Source: a virus. Taken from it: a stretch of DNA of 64,000 nucleotides. The position numbers were made by a program, and so were the translations under genes. The notes under the pieces were generated by a model. It was not told where the DNA came from and searched no databases. It saw only the letters and a program-made list of their open reading frames with translations. The DNA lies in the IMG/VR virus record IMGVR_UViG_3300034122_002094, one strand, 5' to 3'. Below, piece by piece: positions 32,378-64,000 of the stretch (the first letter of the stretch is position 1; each line of letters starts with the position of its first letter).

Positions 32378-32451
32378 GCAGCGTTAGCATAATTGGATAA
32401 TGCAAGGATCTTCTAAGTCCTACCATGTGGGTTCAAGTCCCTCACGCTGTT
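32378..32451 (+). tRNA. tRNA-Arg(TCT)
   Basis: Acceptor GCAGCGT/ACGCTGT; anticodon arm AGGAT-CTTCTAA-GTCCT; GGTTCAAGTCC T-arm; no encoded CCA. Confidence 0.9.
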
Positions 32452-32732
32452 CTGGTGCCATAACCTCAAGCAGGAGTGTCAGTGATGGAAGACTACAAGC
32501 GCCAAATCAATCAGTGCGGACCATTTAACAACGAGCGCGAGGCCAAGTTCTGGATCTGCGGTGTCGAGCATGGCAATCCTGACGACTGCACCGACTACGG
32601 TGTGATCGAGATCGATGGGCAGTGGTATGCCTGCTATACGCGGATCATCGAGATCCGCTACCCTGACGAGCACGACCAGTACGAAGATGTCGTGCGCTTC
32701 ACCTCTCCCATCTAAGCTGTCAAGGAGACAAT

Positions 32733-33023: not shown

Positions 33024-33096
33024 GGCGTTGTCTGCTAATGGTCAGGCGGTCGGACTTTCAATCCGAAGGTGCTGGGTTCAAATCCCGCCAACGCTA
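33024..33096 (+). tRNA. tRNA-Glu(TTC), somewhat atypical D and T arms
   Basis: Acceptor GGCGTTG/CAACGCT; TCGGA-CTTTCAA-TCCGA; GGTTCAAATCC. Confidence 0.8.
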
Positions 33097-33157
33097 CTGC
33101 GCGCAAGCGCCCTCAGAGTGTCTCCAGTGTCAAACCTCAAGCATCAAGAGAAGTATC

Positions 33158-42597: not shown

Positions 42598-43389
42598 ATG
42601 AAGACCTATGCTCTGACCGCTGTCTGCCGCCAACTGTGCAAGCTCGATCCGAATCACCCCTACCAAGGCAGTGATCTGGAGGCCCACATCATCCGAGACG
42701 AGATCGAGCAGTACAAGCCGATCATCGAGGCTCACTTCCCTCCTGGGACCGTCGATGTCTTCGGCCTGCGCGCTGAGTGGTCGCACACAATGATCCTCGG
42801 CAGTGGTGCTGATCAAGTGGTCCTGCTTGGTGCCGGACTGGATCTGCTGGCCCACCGCTACTACATGCGCCCTGTCACCTTCTTCGAGGTCGATCTGGCC
42901 TCAACGATCGCTGTCAAGCGCCTGAAGCTCTTGAGCACACCTGATGACATCGACCTGCACGAGCACCATATCACCTATGTGCCCTGTGACTTCGAGTCTG
43001 ATGACTTCGCTGCGCTGCTCATTGAGCACGGCATCGATCTCACGAAGCCCACCATGTTCGTCTGGCTGGGGGTTTCCTACTATCTGGAGCGTCAGACCGT
43101 CCTCAACACGCTGCGCAAGATCAAGTCGATGGGCTTCCCCGAGGTCATGATCGCGATGGACTATGCGCTTGAGACCGGATCTCCCACCAGCGAGGCAGAG
43201 ATCAAGCTCGCTCAGATGGGCGAGCCGATCAAGACCAAGTTCAAGTCGATCATCCCTGACATCGCCAAGATCGGCTTCAACGTGTTCAACGAGTGCTCAG
43301 TCTTGAGCGAGGCGCTCAACTATGGCCTGCCCATCTACGATGGTGATGCGCGCCAGCTCATGTTCGCGTACATCAGCCACCAGAGCTGA
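42598..43389 (+). CDS. class I SAM-dependent methyltransferase, LCM (leucine carboxyl MTase-like) family
   Basis: QVVLLGAGLD..AHR, FEVD, YVPCDF, PTMFVWLGVSYYL. Confidence 0.85.
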   Translation: MKTYALTAVCRQLCKLDPNHPYQGSDLEAHIIRDEIEQYKPIIEAHFPPGTVDVFGLRAEWSHTMILGSGADQVVLLGAGLDLLAHRYYMRPVTFFEVDLASTIAVKRLKLLSTPDDIDLHEHHITYVPCDFESDDFAALLIEHGIDLTKPTMFVWLGVSYYLERQTVLNTLRKIKSMGFPEVMIAMDYALETGSPTSEAEIKLAQMGEPIKTKFKSIIPDIAKIGFNVFNECSVLSEALNYGLPIYDGDARQLMFAYISHQS

Positions 43390-43454
43390 GCAAGGCCCTC
43401 AAGCAATACAACGGGCGATCAACTCGCCCTGAATCTCAACTGCAAGGAAGTATC

Positions 43455-45391
43455 ATGCTGCCAGAAGACCGTCTCGATCTCAACGACGCCGTTGCCAAGA
43501 ACCGTCACCGGTCGCTCATCATCAAGGGCGTTCGCTTCCACCTCACCGCCGAGATCTTCGGCACCTACGAAGACCCTGTCGCGGGCTGCCTCGGCTACCA
43601 CGACAACACCGGCTTCTCTGAGCATCTCTGCACGGCCAATCTCTCCAGTCCGATCGTCGTCGACAACATGGTCTCCTTTGATCCTGAGCAAGGTTTTCAG
43701 GCTCTGCTCATGTCGAGCATCTACCAAGACACCATCGACTCGCCAGCCAATCTCGAAGAGAAGATCGGCAAGGTCTGCGATCGGATCTGTGCTATGATGA
43801 ATCAGCTCGCGGATGATCAGGACCAGAAGATCCAGGTCTCGGTGCCAGTGCGCGCGACGCGGGTCTATGACGTGATGGTGCCGATGGAGATGTCGACGCG
43901 AGAGTACGCCAAGATCCTTTTGAGCACGCAGGACGATCAAGAGCGCAGCGAGGAGCTAACGCGCCATCTCCTCGATCAGAATACGCTCGACGTGCAAGTC
44001 GATGCCATGCTCGCTGGTGGCGAGGTCTCGTATGAAGAGTACGACAAGGATCTCTCCACCGACAAGATCTTGATCGGTCATGCTCATCTTGGAGGCGCAG
44101 ATGAGCATGACGAGGGCATCCTTGTGAAGACACGTTCCCTCGCACTCAACGCACTCAAGCTCAAGATGCTCGCCAAGTCCAAGGGCTGAGCTGTTCTGCT
44201 GATGACAACAACGGGCGACAGGTTCGCCCCAACCAAAAGAGAGTATCAAGATGGACGAGACCGAAGAGAATATCGTGTTCGATGATGACACCCTGGATCT
44301 GGCCGATGGCGATCTCGATGGCAAGCGCTTCAAGCTTGTGGGTGTCCGGCTGCGCCTCGTCGCACAGCTCATCGTGGAAGACACCACGGCTGGCGCCGAT
44401 GACTTCACCCATCATCTTGACGACCGTGTCGTGACGCTCATGACTCACGATCAGATGCTGCCGCTCCATGAGGTCGCCTTCCTCGGCGAGCTGGTCAACG
44501 ATCCCAATATGGGCTTCAAGATCGACACATCGATCCATGATCTGGCTCTGGCCCCCAATAAGAGCCTGAGCGAGCGCGTAAACGAGATCGCTGACTCCTT
44601 CGATGAGATGGTCGAGATCGACGTGCCTGTGACGGTCGAGTACCACAAGGAGGACGTCTTGACCGTCAAGGTGCCCAAGGGTGCGCTGCTCCGCGCCGCC
44701 AAGGCTGATGTGGATCGCACAGGTGATGAGTCTAACTCCTCATCCATCAACAAGCTCGTGTATGACTACAACGATGTCGAAGATCTGTATGACGCTCAGA
44801 ACATGCGGATCTCTCCTGACGTGTTCTGCCAGGTCTCACAACCCCGAGCTGTCAAGTCAGTGAGTGATCCCGAGACCAACGAGAAGTTCCACGAGATCAC
44901 CAAGCGCAAGGTCAACAAGCGCTGATCTGTTGTGGTTCAATAGGTGCTGTGATACACTCGCAGCACCTTCTGACCCCATAACAAACGGAGGCGTCATGGA
45001 GACCAAGGTGTGTGAAGTTGAGATCGGTCGCGAGAAGTATGAAGCCTTGTTGGAGGCGTTCAAGACGCCTGCAACAGAATGGCCGAACCACGACTATCTC
45101 TCACAGTATGATGAGGGCGACATCGTCTGGGATGTCACGGCGACGTTCGATGACGGTTTTGATCTTGATCTGTTCGTGCGTGCGCCCTGTGACTTCGAGG
45201 ATGAAGATCCTGATGAGGTTGCGTGGGGTGAGCTCGTGCTCTGGTCGCCAGGCATGAACGGGGGCGAGATGATCGAGTTGGATTCTGATCAGATCGACGA
45301 CTTCAAGGAGCAGGCATACCTGTTCCAGTATGGCGACGTCGTTTACCAGATGACCTTGCGGGTCGTGAATGACCTGCCCGAGGAGGACTGA
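43455..45391 (+). other. three acidic hypothetical proteins (43455-44189, 44251-44925, 44996-45391)
   Basis: Each preceded by a hairpin and an RBS-like motif. Confidence 0.7.
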
Positions 45392-45392
45392 G

Positions 45393-46211
45393 ATGCAGCT
45401 CAACATTACCGACAAGCCGCTCAAGGGCAAAGAGATCTGGCTCTGGAGCGATCCGCATCTGTGGCATGGCGCCGATGACGGTAGTACCGGCATCATCAAG
45501 ATGGGCAAGAGGCCATTCTCAAGCCTCGCGCACATGCAGCAGTCGATGATCGAGAACATGCTGGAGCACATGCCAGACAATGCCATCATCATCTGCAATG
45601 GCGACCTGTGCATGGGCAAGAACGACAAGCTCACAGAGTTCTTGTCGAAGTGCCCCTTCCAGATCATCTGTGTTCGTGGCAACCACGATCCAGACCTCCG
45701 CGTCCTGACCATCATGAAGCCTGATGGGACGCTTGAGCATCGCGACCAGACCTACTACCTCAACAAGCCTCTGCTCTTCCCTGACAACTGGAAGGTCTGG
45801 TATGTTGACAAGCTGTGTCTGCGTGGCCTTGTCTACCAGTCAAGGTCTGGCATGACTGTGAGCCGCATCAACTTTGACCACTATCCAGCCGAGGAGTGGC
45901 ACGGATGTGAGAAGAGTGGCATCCTGTTCCACGGTCATGTTCATCACAACGATCCGGCTGATCGGATGCAGGGACGGTTCAACATCTGCGCTGATGTGGT
46001 CGCAGCCCGACACCGTGATGCCCTGACCGCTCTCGGCGCCGACCTGGCCGATCCTGTCTACCAGTACATGCAGCAGCGCTGCTATGCGCCCTATCCCATC
46101 GACTACTTCATCACCGCGCTGGAGCTTGACCGTGAGAGCGTGGCGCGGCGTCCGAGTGACCGCTGGCCAAACGGTGGAGTGATCTTCGGTGAGCGAGAAG
46201 ACGAGTCGTAA
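45393..46211 (+). CDS. calcineurin-like metallophosphoesterase
   Basis: SDPHLWH, NGDL, RGNHD, HYP, HGHVH motifs. Confidence 0.9.
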   Translation: MQLNITDKPLKGKEIWLWSDPHLWHGADDGSTGIIKMGKRPFSSLAHMQQSMIENMLEHMPDNAIIICNGDLCMGKNDKLTEFLSKCPFQIICVRGNHDPDLRVLTIMKPDGTLEHRDQTYYLNKPLLFPDNWKVWYVDKLCLRGLVYQSRSGMTVSRINFDHYPAEEWHGCEKSGILFHGHVHHNDPADRMQGRFNICADVVAARHRDALTALGADLADPVYQYMQQRCYAPYPIDYFITALELDRESVARRPSDRWPNGGVIFGEREDES

Positions 46212-58053: not shown

Positions 58054-59229
58054 TTGAGCACAACGACAAAGTCAGATGTCATCCGCGCCCTACTGGGCAA
58101 CCTTGAGAGCTTCTTGAACGAGATCAGCTATGAGCGGTCTCGCGAGATCGAGCTCATCATCGCTGTCATCGTGGCACGACAGCACATGTTCATGCTGGGA
58201 CCACCGGGTGTCGCCAAGTCCTACATCCTTGAGGAGCTGTCTCGCTGCGTCGAAGGCCGCTGCTTCAAGAAGCTGTTCTCGGCGATGACCGAGCTCTCAG
58301 AGGTCCTCGGTCCGATCGACCTCAAGGCTTTCGAGCAGGAAAACGAGCTGCGCTTCAACTACAAGGACATGCTCCCTGATGCGCACTTCTTCCTCGCTGA
58401 CGAGGTCTTCAAGGCCAACTCCGTGCTGCTGAACGCGCTGCTGGAGCTGCTGAACGAGCGCCGCTTCACCAACGGCAGCCAGCGCGTCAACACAGCCCTT
58501 GTCTCTGCCTTCGGCGCCTCGAATGAGCTCCCACAGGAGGGCCTTGAGGCCTTCTATGACCGCTTCCTCGTTCGCACCCAGGTGCTACCCATCCAGGACC
58601 CGCTGATGTTTGCCGAGTATGCTCGGGGCGGGCATATCGCAGCCAAGCGGCGGTGGGAGAACGGGGAGGATGGTCGCACCATGCCGAAGCTCACGCTCAA
58701 GATGCTGGAGTATGCGGCTGAAGAAGCATCGAAGGTCCTGGTGACTCCCGAGTTTGCCAACCACCTCTCCAAGCTGCGCCAGACGTTCAACCTCAAGCAC
58801 GGCGACGTCCAGATCTCTGACCGTCGCTGGGGTCAGGCCGTCCAATTTGCCAAGGCAAGCGCATGGATTGCCGGACGTGAGAAGCTCGTGCGTAACGACC
58901 TCTTCTACCTGCGCGACTGCCTGTGGGATGAGCCTTCGCAGCGTGGGCCGATCCAGAACACAATCGCTCAGGCTTGCGACCACTCGCTGGCCGACTTCCA
59001 GACAACGCTCAATGACATCAGAGCTGCCATCGCCACAGCTCGTCAGGCCTCTCGATACGCTGATGCCATGAAGCATCAGACTGCAATCAATGAGCTTGAC
59101 AAGATCATGCTGGCGATGCTAGAGAACGACCCGTCGCTCGGACTGTACTGCCGAGCTGCAATGCAGCAGCTCCAGTCAGATCGCAGACAGCTCAAAGAGC
59201 ATATCGAGACACTCGTCCAGAGGAAGTAA
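58054..59229 (+). CDS. MoxR-family AAA+ ATPase, RavA-like
   Basis: Walker A GPPGVAKS, Walker B FLADEVFKA, LNALLELLNERRF, GASNELP, YDRFLVR, ISDRRW. Confidence 0.9.
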   Translation: MSTTTKSDVIRALLGNLESFLNEISYERSREIELIIAVIVARQHMFMLGPPGVAKSYILEELSRCVEGRCFKKLFSAMTELSEVLGPIDLKAFEQENELRFNYKDMLPDAHFFLADEVFKANSVLLNALLELLNERRFTNGSQRVNTALVSAFGASNELPQEGLEAFYDRFLVRTQVLPIQDPLMFAEYARGGHIAAKRRWENGEDGRTMPKLTLKMLEYAAEEASKVLVTPEFANHLSKLRQTFNLKHGDVQISDRRWGQAVQFAKASAWIAGREKLVRNDLFYLRDCLWDEPSQRGPIQNTIAQACDHSLADFQTTLNDIRAAIATARQASRYADAMKHQTAINELDKIMLAMLENDPSLGLYCRAAMQQLQSDRRQLKEHIETLVQRK

Positions 59230-59623: not shown

Positions 59624-60017
59624 AAGCCTGAACACATGGCAGTTCAAAGCCCTGAACATCTCGCTGCTCGTCATGGCTTTCATCACACATGTGATGGGTG
59701 TGCCAGAGATCTCTCGGCTGTTTGTCCTCAGCTTCGCGCTGACCAACGCCTTCGAGATCGGCGTGCAAGCTGGTAGTGTCAAAGCCAGCGGTGCATTGAA
59801 TGCCTCAGAGATCAATAAAATCCATCGACATGTGATAAAGATCCATGTCGTCGGCCTCCTGGGCATTGCTTCGCTGGTCGTGACGCTCGTCATTGCTGCT
59901 CACATGACGGCGAATACGCCGTACCAGAACTTCTGGGACTTTGTCTTCAGCGGAGTATGCGTCGCTCACTACTGCTTGTTTGGCATCTATGCCATTCAGA
60001 GAGAGGAGCTCAATTGA
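59613..60017 (+). CDS. multi-pass membrane protein
   Basis: AGGAGG RBS; about 4 hydrophobic segments. Confidence 0.7.
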   Translation: MLIKSLNTWQFKALNISLLVMAFITHVMGVPEISRLFVLSFALTNAFEIGVQAGSVKASGALNASEINKIHRHVIKIHVVGLLGIASLVVTLVIAAHMTANTPYQNFWDFVFSGVCVAHYCLFGIYAIQREELN

Positions 60018-61221
60018 CTCAGTCAAAGTTGACGGTGATCGAGGGCGGCACAGATTGTACCCGGCTGCTCTACTACAACTGCCCTGTTCGTCATCCATCG
60101 CTCAAGGTCGAGATCGTCACAGATGAGCGCCACCAGCTTCTCTGTGAGATGATCTGGGCCTCTGGGCTGTTCGACGTCGAAGCGCTGGTTGGCCTGAAGA
60201 TCATGCCAGGTCCGTTCGAGCCGTCTGTCAGCAACGGGACAAGATCTCCCTGGAAGGTTGTCAGCCATCTCAAGTCTGACATCGTCTGGGGACCCACAGG
60301 CAACCCAGCAGCCGCAGTCGGTGAACGGCAGAACTATGATGGTCGTGCTGGCCTGACTTACTCGGCTGAGCTGGCCGCACAGCCTGTCGTTGTTGCGCTG
60401 GAAGGCCAGGAAACAGGCTATGCCTGCATCAACGTACTCGCCAATGAGAAATATGTTGGCAGGCTGGTTTATAGCTGGGACAACCTGGCTGATCCGCCTG
60501 TAAGCTTTGGTCTCAAGGCGCTCAAGACCGGTCTGCAAGAGTACAACGACAACGCCCTCAAACAGCGCCAAGCCTTCTTGCTGGAGAATCCATGAAAGAA
60601 AAATTAACCGTCATCGAAGGTGGGACAGAAGACCCCCTGCTGCTCTACTACAAACATGTCGTCATTCATCCATCGCCCTCCTACCAGATCATGTCTGATG
60701 ATCGTCATCAGCTCCTCTGCGAGATGGTGATCCAGAAAGGGATCTTCGAGATCGAGGCGATGGTCGGCAAAATGATGGACCCCAGCAAGCCATTCAAGCC
60801 CTGGGTTTGCAATGGCTTACGCAGTCCCTGGCGCCTCGTATGTCACAAAGTCGAGGAGGCTGGCGTCGACAACATCATCATCGCCAGGCCTCCAGCCCAG
60901 ATTGGTGATACCACTGTCCTGATCAGCATGGGCGGCATCACTGTCAAAGCTCGCATGGGCACCTCATGCGTCGCGATGCTTGTTGGCGTTGGCCAGATCT
61001 GTGGCGCCGCCATCGAAGTGTTGGTGAACGAGGATGTAGTGGGTGAGATCCATTACAGTTGGAACAACCTTGTAGATCCGCCCTTCGAGAAAGGCGATCT
61101 CATGGTAAGTAACGATGCCGCTCTTTACAATGCCTCGATCATCAAAGAGAGGTCCGACTTGATCGCTGCTGAGCGCTCCAAAATGAGACTTCCTTACAAG
61201 CAGTCCAAGAGACCCCTATGA
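60014..61221 (+). other. tandem paralogous genes 60014-60595 and 60592-61221
   Basis: Shared KLTVIEGGT, LLYY, HPS, DxRHQLLCEM, NGxRSPW, YSWxNLxDPP. Confidence 0.8.
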
Positions 61222-62504
61222 ATGAATGGATGGCTGAGATGGACAGGGATGTGTTTCTGCACTACGGCGCGAAGCACCTCTTTGTCGACGAATACAAAAA
61301 AGCTGAGCCTGCTATCCAAGAGCAAATCGTGGATCTGTACGGCTCTCTCTATCGTGGCAGGTCTCACGAGCTGATCGATGCAGCCAGGCATTCCAGCCAC
61401 TACTTCGACACCCACGTCGAGCTCAGTCGCGGAGATCCTTTCCACTCACTCTACATGAGTTATCTCGTCCACAAGTACGTCGATGAGCCCTATCAGGAGG
61501 CCAAAAAGAAAGGCTGCAAAGGCAATGAGCTTGGCGACTTGATGTCTGGCCTGATCAACGAGAAGGTCAAGCCAGAGCTCGATGCAGCGCTTGAGGCTCA
61601 TGCAGATCTCATGGACCTGCTTCAGTCTGAGAGAGGCGATCAGCCTGGCAACAGGGTCGATCAGATCACCGGCCAGACCCTGGAGGATCTCCAGCGGATC
61701 GTGGGTCTGTGCAGCGAGCCCAACTTTGCCGCTGTCATGAAGCTCATGGGCCGCTTCTTTCGCAGCTACTCTGCCATGTTCAAGACGCAGGTGTTCCCGA
61801 GCAACACGGTGCCGGTCGATGTCAAGTTCGGCAGGCAGATCTCTCATGTGTTGTCAAGTGAGCTCCTGGCGCTGGCCAATCCCTCTCTGCGCCGCCTGTT
61901 CCGTCTGAAGTTCGTCACTGGACGCCTGCTCCAATTCGACAAGGAGCACAAGGAGGGTAGCAATCGTGGACCGCTGTACCTGGCGCTTGACATCTCTGGC
62001 TCGATGAGCGCTGAGCTCAAACTTGATCAAGGCCTTCACGTCCATCGCTACCAGCTCGCCGCAGCGCTCATCCTCGTGCTCATGCGCATCTGCTACAAAG
62101 AGAAGCGTGAGTTTGAGATGTTCCTGTTTGGCAGCTCGACAAGGCACCTCTTCTCGTCGAAGGACTACCCGAGGTTGATCGATGCGATGGAGAAGCTCGT
62201 GAAGAGCTGCAAAGGCACAGATGGAACAGACATCAAAAGGTGCTTCAAATCACTGGTAGATTTCAAAGCCAGGGCTGGAGATACCATTCAGCCCGACTTT
62301 GTCATCATCTCTGACCTCGAAGACCAGTGTCCCATGACGACAGTTCAAGAGATCAATAATATGATCGGCGAAACTCGTTGCCATGCGCTCATCGTTCATG
62401 ATAGTCTTGATAGTGAGTGGAACAAGGTCTTTACGACCGTCACCGCTACCACCAACCCCGCCAACATGACCCAGTTCCTGGTCGACTCCACAAGGAAAAG
62501 ATAA
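61218..62504 (+). CDS. VWA-domain protein, ViaA-like partner of the MoxR ATPase
   Basis: GPLYLALDISGSM (MIDAS DxSxS), GTDI, DFVIISD; upstream G..ISHVLSSEL..L. Confidence 0.85.
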   Translation: MNEWMAEMDRDVFLHYGAKHLFVDEYKKAEPAIQEQIVDLYGSLYRGRSHELIDAARHSSHYFDTHVELSRGDPFHSLYMSYLVHKYVDEPYQEAKKKGCKGNELGDLMSGLINEKVKPELDAALEAHADLMDLLQSERGDQPGNRVDQITGQTLEDLQRIVGLCSEPNFAAVMKLMGRFFRSYSAMFKTQVFPSNTVPVDVKFGRQISHVLSSELLALANPSLRRLFRLKFVTGRLLQFDKEHKEGSNRGPLYLALDISGSMSAELKLDQGLHVHRYQLAAALILVLMRICYKEKREFEMFLFGSSTRHLFSSKDYPRLIDAMEKLVKSCKGTDGTDIKRCFKSLVDFKARAGDTIQPDFVIISDLEDQCPMTTVQEINNMIGETRCHALIVHDSLDSEWNKVFTTVTATTNPANMTQFLVDSTRKR

Positions 62505-62505
62505 T

Positions 62506-64000
62506 ATGATCATCAGCATCGACATGTTCATGACTCAGCCCGATCTGGATCGTCACGATCTGAAGGACGCCTCCGAGATCGGCTATGTGCTCCAGAAGAA
62601 CCCTGCCAACACCCATACCAAGGATCTCTCGTTTGGCAAAGCCCACCTGATGTTCGACATGGTGACAAAGCCTGATTTCATTCAGGACTTTCGCTGCGCC
62701 GACTACATCGAGCCTGGAGATCATCTGGGGCTCATGAGCTTCACGCTCATCCCTGTCATCGACGAGAACAAGATCGTGCGTGGTTCGGGCAGCTACAAGA
62801 CTCACCCTCTGGAGGCGTTCGTCAACGACACCGCGTTCACATTCGGCACGCACACAGCCACAGCGCTGGTCAAGATGTTCTCGAAGACCATGAACCGTGG
62901 TGTCGAGCATCCTCTGGCCGATGCGATCTTCAACTTCGTGGTTGACATCAGCAACGTCGTCATCGAAGACGAGAGCGACGTTCGTTATCTGAGGAGTCTG
63001 TTCAACCATATGGGCGCGCTGGCTGTCAAAGATCCCGAGGGCGATCACGGCATCCATTACTCCTACCTCCACTTTCAGTCTGACGATCATGTCCATCGGA
63101 CGCTGTACAGCCAGCGCGACAAAGCCGTCATGTTCGCCAAGGGTTCGCTCCCAGCGCATGGCCTGACAAACATGGTGCTTGAGTATCGTGGCACCACTGC
63201 TGATCTGCTCTCGTTCGTGTATCTGCTCGGGCACCTGCTCGACAGGAACAAGCACTACTACATGGGCGCCGATGAGATGGAGCGCTTCGATCGGTTCTGT
63301 CGCCCTGTGTTGTTCCCGAGTCAGGAGCGTCTGGACGCGGTCTTCGGTCACGAGGGCAAGCGCTTTGTGGCGGATGTCATCCGCGAGAGCTGTGACAGGT
63401 TCTTCGCAGGCAACAAGCAGCTCGCCAATGCAGCGTTCGACTCCTTCTCTGACTACCTGGCCGTCAAAGCCGATGCAGAAGAGGTCGAGGAGGCCCCAAA
63501 GAGCTCTTCTGAGACCACCGAAGAGCTCTCCCTTCATGAGCGTCGGCACAAGGCGATCCTGTCGCTCCTGGACCGTGTGAAGCTGCCTCAGCCATACACC
63601 ATCGTCGATGCTGGCTGCTCGACTGGTCAGCTCATGAAGAAGCTCGCGAAGTGGGGCGAGGATCAGCCCAAGCGTCCGAACCTGATCGGCATTGATCCAG
63701 GAATGAAGAACGTCGGCATCGTCAAGCGCAAGCTCGCGCGCACCGGAGCGCCCGGCGCTGTCTATCAGAGCTCGATTCGCCACCGCGACTCCCGGCTGCG
63801 CGATCTGTGTGACGTCATGATCTTATCGGAGGTCATCGAGCACCTGGATCTGTCCGACGTCAGCCAGGCCATCGAGGTCATCAAGTGGTATGCTCCCGAG
63901 GTGCTGATCGTGACGACGCCCAACAAGGCATACAACTCTGTGCTGCATGAGAAGTATGCTGCTCCAGGCACCCCCAAGCGCGAGTTCCGTCACTGGGACC
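62506..64000 (+). CDS. hen1: bacterial-type Hen1 3'-terminal RNA 2'-O-methyltransferase (3'-truncated)
   Basis: Hand translation: N-domain EIGYVLQKNP...LSFGKAH, LEAFVND, DRNKHYYMG.DE; MTase SLHERR, IVDAGC, RDSRL, EVIEHLD, VTTPN..YN, FRHWD. Absent from the ORF track because no stop occurs inside the window. Confidence 0.9.
   Translation, partial: MIISIDMFMTQPDLDRHDLKDASEIGYVLQKNPANTHTKDLSFGKAHLMFDMVTKPDFIQDFRCADYIEPGDHLGLMSFTLIPVIDENKIVRGSGSYKTHPLEAFVNDTAFTFGTHTATALVKMFSKTMNRGVEHPLADAIFNFVVDISNVVIEDESDVRYLRSLFNHMGALAVKDPEGDHGIHYSYLHFQSDDHVHRTLYSQRDKAVMFAKGSLPAHGLTNMVLEYRGTTADLLSFVYLLGHLLDRNKHYYMGADEMERFDRFCRPVLFPSQERLDAVFGHEGKRFVADVIRESCDRFFAGNKQLANAAFDSFSDYLAVKADAEEVEEAPKSSSETTEELSLHERRHKAILSLLDRVKLPQPYTIVDAGCSTGQLMKKLAKWGEDQPKRPNLIGIDPGMKNVGIVKRKLARTGAPGAVYQSSIRHRDSRLRDLCDVMILSEVIEHLDLSDVSQAIEVIKWYAPEVLIVTTPNKAYNSVLHEKYAAPGTPKREFRHWD

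Follow-up and report, generated by a model that had tools for sequence, protein, structure and literature searches.

A Hen1 gene and an adjoining stand-alone Pnkp-type RNA ligase gene in a phage genome

The Hen1 gene, its ligase neighbour and the phage that carries them

The stretch of DNA analysed here, referred to as the window, comprises 64,000 nucleotides (nt) of virus record IMGVR_UViG_3300034122_002094 and is the minus strand of G000:C1:44713-108712, G000 being the 176,695-bp virus record; plain coordinates below refer to the window. It ends within a gene for a Hen1 protein, and just past the end is a gene for an RNA ligase. The Hen1 open reading frame (ORF) was first reported in an earlier note made from the letters alone, as an ORF of at least 498 codons with the Hen1 N-terminal domain and the methyltransferase motifs EVIEH, TTPN and RHxD. 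That identification has been borne out in full by Pfam, by the NCBI family TIGR04074, by PDB matches and by alignment, and as a judgement based on sequence comparison it is confirmed far beyond chance.

The Hen1 ORF runs from an ATG at 62506 to the window end (62506..64000, plus strand), giving 498 codons with the 3' end open. In the genome the gene has 582 codons (G000:C1:46207..44459, minus strand), which would end at 64254 if the window were extended, and there is an AAGGA Shine-Dalgarno sequence 8-9 nt ahead of the ATG. In the Pfam search the N-terminal domain matched Hen1_L (PF12623, 61 bits against a cut-off of 23) and the protein also matched several S-adenosylmethionine (SAM) methyltransferase families; Hen1_L was the only N-terminal domain found, PF22032 (Hen1_N) not being reported. 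The protein scores 143 bits (E 7e-42) against TIGR04074 (bacter_Hen1), and its PDB sequence matches are the methyltransferase domains 3JWH (E 3e-11) and 3JWG, and the N-domain 4DQZ (E 1e-7). The Hen1_L domain, with lineage-specific insertions, takes up approximately residues 1-330, and the methyltransferase domain approximately residues 340-510. By homology the first is predicted to be ligase-activating and the second to be a Mn-dependent 2'-O-methyltransferase.

In an alignment of the phage protein with nine Hen1 proteins the motif columns E442-V-I-E445-H446, T470-T-P-N473 and R495-H496-x-D498-H499-R500-x-E502 are invariant. These include the metal ligands E442, E445 and H446, together with H496 and H499. 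The SAM-site residues D368 and G370 are likewise invariant, and the phage protein keeps all of the invariant N-domain columns (K31, P33, D86, D108, D246, H250 and Y251).

The ligase gene (C1:44462/44453..43134) encodes a protein of 442 or 439 amino acids (aa), depending on the start. The Hen1 stop codon overlaps a GTG (as GTGA), and an alternative ATG, preceded by GGAAG, is 6 nt downstream and is the start chosen in public gene calls (P0047; L016). In Pfam the protein matches PNKP_ligase (PF16542) with 178 bits; this is a Pnkp-type ATP-dependent RNA ligase family, which we take to be Rnl4. It also matches the ligase domain of Clostridium thermocellum Pnkp (3TY9, E 1e-28). The ligase motifs I, Ia, III, IV and V are invariant, with K97 (in KxMGSR), which is the adenylylation lysine, R120, D156/E158, E322-G-x-V-x-K327 and K346xR348. 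The earlier note had predicted a pnkp gene just beyond the window. There is indeed an RNA ligase gene there, directly adjoining Hen1, but it represents only the ligase third of Pnkp, as it covers only positions 484-819 of the 851 in TIGR04075. By its sequence the neighbour of Hen1 is a stand-alone Pnkp-type ATP-dependent RNA ligase that has neither the kinase nor the metallophosphoesterase part of Pnkp.

A model of the complex of Hen1 residues 1-335 with the ligase scored 0.81, while the best of 3 controls scored 0.02. The mark applied is one that 58 of 80 solved complexes attain, against 2 of 110 mismatched pairs; with our own alignments in use, these figures hold only approximately. Between runs at least 86% of the contacts are shared, with a partner pLDDT (predicted local distance difference test) of at least 70. 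In the modelled interface the conserved VNDxxF region of Hen1 meets the insertion after motif III and the C-terminal tail of the ligase. A similar complex has already been solved (4DRF/4E6N), and thus the result shows likeness to a solved complex and is no proof of binding. The model supports the view that the Hen1 N-domain binds the ligase.

The record is a real phage genome. It has direct terminal repeats, a CheckV completeness of 100% and a terminase gene, and its other phage-type genes include SbcCD-like, ribonucleotide reductase and helicase genes. There are only two close relatives of its Hen1 among 5.8 billion clusters, at 97% and 49% identity; all others are at or below about 27%, and identity to the nearest bacterial Hen1 is only about 25%. 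Both related phages share a block consisting of MoxR, small ORFs, VWA, Hen1 and ligase. In the phage with 49% Hen1 identity the block continues downstream with o44, o43 and RNase_T, and the ligase is again ligase-only, so that this arrangement holds in a relative at 49-56% identity. With the 97%-identical relative, dN/dS (the ratio of nonsynonymous to synonymous substitution rates) is 0.126 for Hen1 and 0.17 for the ligase, and both genes are under purifying selection.

The Hen1-ligase stretch was also found in lake-water metagenome runs from several years, none of the runs listed being of RNA. In an independent 2020 run it is covered by identical short contigs, and two 2025 runs contain a variant that differs by substitutions at a few per cent; the ligase-Hen1 junction is bridged by one contig of this variant. 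The conserved synteny in both related phages and the contigs from other runs that span the junction rule out a chimeric contig end, and with it the concern, raised in the earlier note, that the end of the contig is host DNA.

The other genes of the block can be described briefly. The VWA (ViaA/CoxE-like) protein gene (61218..62504, plus strand, 428 aa; ViaA NF008230, E 3e-10) has its TAA stop 1 nt ahead of the Hen1 start. It is in the same position in both related phages, and its product is 54% identical to the L010 homologue. The bpMoxR-type AAA ATPase gene (58054..59229, plus strand, from C1:49484-50659; 391 aa) was recognised by homology to the L010 gene, to which it is 60% identical and whose product carries PF20030 (bpMoxR) and AAA_5; it is present also in L016. 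Between MoxR and VWA are two paralogous genes (59957-60595 and 60592-61221, both plus strand) whose products, of 212 and 209 aa, match no family. Genes for 188 and 209 aa hold the position of this pair in L016, and the N-termini share LTVIEGGT. A gene for an R2K-clade ATP-grasp protein (PF14243, 380 aa; G000:C1:35484-36626, L002:1485-2627, minus strand) ends the same block in L010 too. On the 3' side of the ligase gene is a 308-bp spacer (L002:8821-9130 = G000:C1:42820-43129) that both the 2025 variant and the 49% relative lack; just 3' of it is a promoter-like sequence, TTGACA-18-TATGGT (L002:8875-8904), facing o44.

Known Hen1 systems and the wider family of Hen1-ligase proteins

Two Hen1 systems have been described (PMC4411300). 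One consists of the trifunctional Pnkp with Hen1, and the other, Pnkp1-Rnl-Hen1, has a stand-alone ligase and a T4-like Pnkp1, with Capnocytophaga gingivalis as the reference (PDB 4XRP/4XRU). The phage pair has features of each. With bacterial Pnkp-Hen1 it shares the Hen1_L family of N-domains and the methyltransferase active site, and the ligase belongs to the family of the C-terminal domain of Pnkp and has the same catalytic motifs, with hen1 adjoining the ligase gene; the predicted interface between the Hen1 N-domain and the ligase uses the same kind of contacts. In contrast to the trifunctional Pnkp, however, the phage ligase is alone, and kinase and metallophosphoesterase were found neither in the gene nor in the genome. 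The phage Hen1 also differs in being only about 25% identical, about 120 residues longer and phage-encoded.

With Pnkp1-Rnl-Hen1 the resemblance is in organisation, as there too Hen1 has as its partner a ligase that is a polypeptide of its own, and the system is multi-gene and occurs in large phages. However those Hen1 proteins carry Hen1_N (PF22032) whereas the present one carries Hen1_L; healing there falls to a T4-like kinase, either alone or with a HAD phosphatase, in an adjacent gene or as a fusion, whereas no such protein was detected in the present genome; and their ligases fall in a different clade from the present ligase.

The earlier note left it undecided whether a phage Hen1 had been reported before. 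It had, as the XacN1 paper of 2018 noted a PNKP and a Hen1 homologue (PMC5852040), and a tblastn search of 50,697 deposited phages gave Hen1 in five, all of them jumbo phages: XacN1, Stenotrophomonas CM1 and RAS14, and Vibrio RYC and vB_VpaM_sm033. The present phage Hen1 gave no tblastn match in the same 50,697 records. Two of the five, XacN1 and Vibrio vB_VpaM_sm033, were typed and both are Pnkp1-Rnl-Hen1, the other three having been found by similarity to the XacN1 Hen1. PF22032 scores are 200 bits for the Hen1 of XacN1 and 119 bits for that of the Vibrio phage. In XacN1 (L012, AP018399.1) ORF199 is the AAA_33 kinase, ORF198 a Hen1_N-type Hen1 and ORF197 ligase-only, and in vB_VpaM_sm033 (L013, OV032902.1) the ligase is followed by a 726-aa fusion of Hen1_N, methyltransferase, AAA_33 and HAD_PNKP. 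Annotation of these genes is uneven: XacN1 ORF197 is mislabelled, as a metallophosphoesterase in the record and as PNKP in the paper, the four-domain Vibrio fusion was deposited as "polynucleotide kinase", and the Hen1 genes of CM1 and RAS14 are unannotated.

The Pnkp and Rnl1 of T4 (PMC6097658) are a functional analogue in that they are a phage-encoded means of repairing nuclease-cut tRNA as a counter to PrrC. T4 differs in that it seals without junction methylation and with an unrelated family of ligase, and has a kinase-HAD phosphatase that was not detected in the present phage.

A scan of IMG/VR with a single-protein pattern gave no match, and it was with alignments that matches were obtained. 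The alignment-based scan gave four Hen1_L loci and nine ligase loci on eight sequences. Two of the ligase loci are classical Pnkp plus Hen1, one is a truncated Pnkp and one a lone ligase, and the rest are Hen1::ligase fusions. These fusions are single chains of 813-886 aa (on L023/L026, L027, L028 and L029). Like the present pair they combine Hen1_L, methyltransferase and Pnkp-type ligase with no covalent healing domains and are on viral contigs. They differ in being one chain of 810-890 aa, some with an HD-motif-plus-Pnk gene nearby, while the present phage has two tightly linked genes and a ligase in a clade of its own. Two of the fusions have near them a protein that begins with an HD motif and has a kinase as its C-terminal part; this kinase gives matches to Pnkp1, T4 Pnk and CthPnk (E 3e-9 to 1e-5). 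The HD-Pnk healer that has been characterised (cited in PMC6097658) is built in the same way.

To survey the ligase more widely we typed, with our own hidden Markov models (HMMs), the 150 most similar cluster representatives of 875 matches (E<=1e-3; 1.84 billion clusters) and 12 locus sequences. On this list, which is biased towards the present query, 72 are Hen1-ligase fusions, 11 methyltransferase-ligase, 41 ligase only (some being fragments), 28 kinase-metallophosphoesterase-ligase and 10 partial Pnkp forms. In a FastTree tree of the ligase domains, for which the midpoint root is arbitrary, the present ligase is in a clade of four stand-alone ligases with support of 1.0, separate both from the clade of XacN1 and Vibrio Rnl and from the large fusion clade. 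Despite these limits, the typing shows Hen1 with a ligase that lacks attached healing domains to be common and the healers to be modular. In the literature searched we found no test of any phage Hen1 and no account of the present arrangement of a Hen1_L-type Hen1 and a ligase. What is new here is this pair without healing domains, the fusion-dominated neighbourhood of its ligase, and the presence elsewhere of separately encoded healers, in the form of HD-Pnk in other viral contigs.

Two further observations concern the fusions. Together those of 810-950 aa (on L023/L026, L027, L028 and L029, and P0051-P0196) account for roughly half of the 150 closest relatives of the ligase, and some of the loci have an HD-motif-plus-Pnk gene a few kb away. 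There is also a 970-aa methyltransferase-ligase fusion (L011, Logan contig ERR14790948_283780, 6001-8913) beside a cyclin N + C gene and a ThyX-like gene, neighbours that suggest a eukaryote or giant virus with the same methyltransferase-ligase module.

A proposed role and the question of end healing

By homology to bacterial Pnkp-Hen1 we propose that the phage has a two-gene RNA module that would both seal and immunise. The N-domain of Hen1 would bind and activate the ligase, the methyltransferase would add a 2'-O-methyl group (2'-OMe) to the 3'-terminal ribose of a broken RNA, and the ligase would join the 3'-OH to the 5'-phosphate with the 2'-OMe staying at the junction, which would then resist recutting by transesterifying ribonucleases. 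That Hen1 and the ligase form an active unit that methylates and seals RNA is very probable.

The likeliest substrates would be tRNAs cut by host anticodon nucleases or by other tRNA-targeting abortive defences, making the module one of counter-defence; we infer this from the fact that the phage also has about 30 tRNA genes and a Pth2-HD protein. Of the tRNA genes 28 are within 6 kb outside the window (L032 = G000:C1:132000-138000), and a tRNA search gave two further ones within it, for tRNA-Arg(TCT) (32378..32452) and tRNA-Glu(TTC) (33024..33097), both on the plus strand. The array also includes a GroES-like ORF (L032:2219-2509) among its tRNA genes. The kinase and phosphatase steps would be supplied in trans by diverged or non-orthologous phage proteins, for which there are the four candidates discussed below. 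By analogy PrrC, RloC or PARIS may be among the defences countered. We think it probable, though with real reservations, that the pair repairs nuclease-cut tRNA as a counter-defence, with healing in trans by unrecognised phage proteins. It counts in favour of modular healing that other viral contigs have a Hen1::ligase fusion with a separately encoded HD-motif-plus-Pnk protein nearby.

The searches for healing enzymes covered the complete genome, in which there was no match to the AAA_33 kinase or the HAD_PNKP phosphatase, and no 2H phosphoesterase or RtcB was found. The Pfam search gave no match to HD, though an H...HD..GK motif is visible in the Pth2-HD ORF, and also missed the Metallophos domain of o33. 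Negatives from that search are therefore weak, and it was supplemented by exhaustive phmmer and hmmsearch over all six-frame ORFs. With phmmer (E<=1) bacterial Pnkp, the split bacterial kinase and the XacN1 kinase gave no match and the Vibrio phage Hen1-Pnkp1 fusion matched nothing outside Hen1, and with custom kinase and Pnkp-phosphatase HMMs, filters off, there was P-loop-level similarity at most. As no kinase or 2',3'-phosphatase of a known repair type was detected, a full pathway of healing, methylation and sealing is not established as phage-encoded.

Four proteins may be considered as healer candidates, with none of them established. The P-loop protein o9 (C1:8655-9275, 206 aa), which occurs only in the present phage group, may be an RNA or DNA 5'-kinase, a plausible but unproven assignment that comes from a structure model. 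For that model (pLDDT 66) the six top Foldseek matches are all C. thermocellum Pnk (E 6.5e-5, template modelling (TM) score 0.48/0.56), and an exhaustive VIA search gave 4GP6 with Z 9.4 (root-mean-square deviation 4.2, 155 aligned), which puts CthPnk level with PFK2 kinase (9.7), Clp1 (9.6) and PSTK (9.3), T4 Pnk (8.7) and Pnkp1 (8.5) scoring lower. In sequence o9 matched the kinase HMM at the P-loop alone (E 0.04). The Pth2-HD ORF is within the tRNA array (C1:134755-135675, L032:2756-3679; 307 codons) and has a Pth2-like N-terminus and an H...HD.GK motif; its PDB matches are weak only, to CCA/A-adding-enzyme relatives (E 0.035) and Pth2. The other two are metallophosphoesterases. One, o33 (G000:C1:31845-32861, L007:11846-12862, minus strand), has 338 aa with a long helical insertion in its AlphaFold2 (AF2) model. 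The other, o72 (45369..46211, plus strand), is small (280 aa; phrog_547 82 bits, Metallophos 27.5 bits), and is one of several unassigned phosphoesterases that are no more than candidates for removal of the 2',3'-phosphate.

Some other assignments were considered and set aside. The product of o32 (C1:30814-31848), considered as a polynucleotide kinase, matches instead the thymidylate-kinase family (PHROG 761, TIGR00041, DRx..S..YQG), and o33 as a Pnkp-type phosphatase matched the Pnkp-phosphatase HMM only with E 2.2. The protein o10, a phage metallophosphoesterase of YonJ-like type that matches PdeM weakly, is probably DNA-related, and o44, the best-conserved neighbour (65% identity), gives a weak AbrB/MazE-like lead without an enzyme fold. 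It may be added that o33 adjoins the thymidylate-kinase-like gene, and that Dbr1, to which o33 is compared below, is the RNA lariat debranching enzyme, a 2'-5' phosphodiesterase.

A number of these and other results weigh against repair of nuclease-cut tRNA with healing in trans. With no recognised healer, repair of the classical break, with 2',3'-cyclic phosphate and 5'-OH ends, is on sequence grounds unaccounted for. Of the candidates, o33 in its AF2 model (pLDDT 78) best matches Dbr1 (E 1e-8, TM 0.44-0.47) and LpxH and not the Pnkp phosphatase, while the fold match of o9 is modest, with small-molecule kinases scoring equally well, and the o9 gene is coupled in translation to that of o10, a YonJ-like metallophosphoesterase of DNA type. 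The phage Hen1 itself is below the NCBI equivalog cut-off for TIGR04074 (143 against 340 bits), and Hen1 proteins of the phage lineage have about 120 extra residues, in three insertions in the N-domain and linker and in a C-terminal tail. It is a divergent member of the family and not a TIGR04074 equivalog.

The main rival explanation is that healing is not needed, the substrates being breaks that already have 3'-OH and 5'-phosphate ends, made by metal-dependent tRNases (of TOPRIM, PIN or HNH type, as in PARIS, Septu, OLD and retron effectors). Hen1 would methylate the free 3' end and the ligase would seal, with no need for kinase or phosphatase. The failure to find a healing enzyme in a complete genome is as expected under this explanation, but an undetected homologue does not prove an absent activity. 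It is supported also by the prevalence of healer-less forms, which are the commonest among the nearest ligase relatives (72 Hen1-ligase and 11 methyltransferase-ligase against 28 kinase-metallophosphoesterase-ligase, among the best 150 of 875 and the 12 locus sequences), and by viral contigs L027 and L029, which have the same architecture with no kinase detected within 7 kb; other viral Hen1::ligase loci, however, have retained an HD-Pnk-like healer nearby. According to the abstracts of recent papers, several anti-phage tRNases are TOPRIM nucleases. TOPRIM cleavage yields 3'-OH and 5'-phosphate ends. Yet 2'-O-methylation makes most sense against nucleases that act by transesterification, in which the 2'-OH is the nucleophile and the cyclic-phosphate ends that result require healing, and we regard healing-free repair as unlikely.

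A role in RNA maturation would have the pair join or circularise phage tRNA and tRNA-like pieces, or cap 3' ends with 2'-OMe against host 3' exonucleases and tailing enzymes, as eukaryotic Hen1 does on small RNAs. The genome is unusually rich in tRNA genes and the healing enzymes were not found, both of which would fit, but Hen1_L is a ligase-activating module specific to repair systems and no split tRNA genes were seen among the tRNA genes of the window and the 6-kb array. It also counts against maturation that a terminal 2'-OMe on A76 of tRNA would hinder aminoacylation, and such a role is distinctly improbable. The idea that the two genes are a passenger from a bacterium, decaying and with no current role in the phage, could draw on the missing kinase and phosphatase parts, which are what truncation of pnkp would leave, but is disfavoured and very improbable, since the catalytic residues are all intact in both proteins, dN/dS is 0.13-0.17, and the ligase-only arrangement is kept in the relative at 49-56% identity. 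The ligase being in its own stand-alone clade (support 1.0), and the nearest bacterial Hen1 being so distant (about 25% identity), also argue against it.

Repair of cut tRNA as a counter-defence, with the ends healed in trans, is the reading that we prefer. There is a broader proposal, in which Hen1 and the ligase would be the autonomous core of a widespread and largely viral "seal and immunise" system, for which healing is either unneeded, as for the 3'-OH/5'-phosphate breaks that TOPRIM effectors and other metal-dependent tRNases leave, or comes from interchangeable non-homologous healers. The healers in the present phage would then be a new polynucleotide-kinase family, represented by o9, and a peptidyl-tRNA hydrolase with a fused HD domain. 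We consider this doubtful as it stands; if true, the phage lineage and the many Hen1::ligase fusions would be a previously unrecognised class of anti-defence against tRNA-cleaving immunity.

Such immunity (PrrC, RloC, PARIS, Septu, retron effectors, OLD) is now seen as a major anti-phage strategy, which phages are known to answer by T4-style repair and with replacement tRNAs. If a phage repaired the RNA and at the same time marked the junction so that it could not be cut again, this would be a third and more durable answer. In this phage, as in many fusions, Hen1 and the ligase go together without the kinase-phosphatase part, and this raises the testable question of which ends are repaired and what heals them. 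The main interest is in the missing healing half and in the large uncharacterised family of Hen1-ligase fusions.

Other genes of the phage

Two genes elsewhere in the genome deserve mention. One is for a macro-domain protein of 202 aa (G000:C1:29546-30154, L007:9547-10155, minus strand) that matches the DarG antitoxin model NF048014 (E 1e-13) and phrog_335, and on the basis of these matches it could be an anti-DarT ADP-ribosyl glycohydrolase. The other, within the window (42598-43389, plus strand), is for a leucine carboxyl methyltransferase (LCM, PF04072) protein of 263 aa with a score of 89 bits, which is unusual for a phage.

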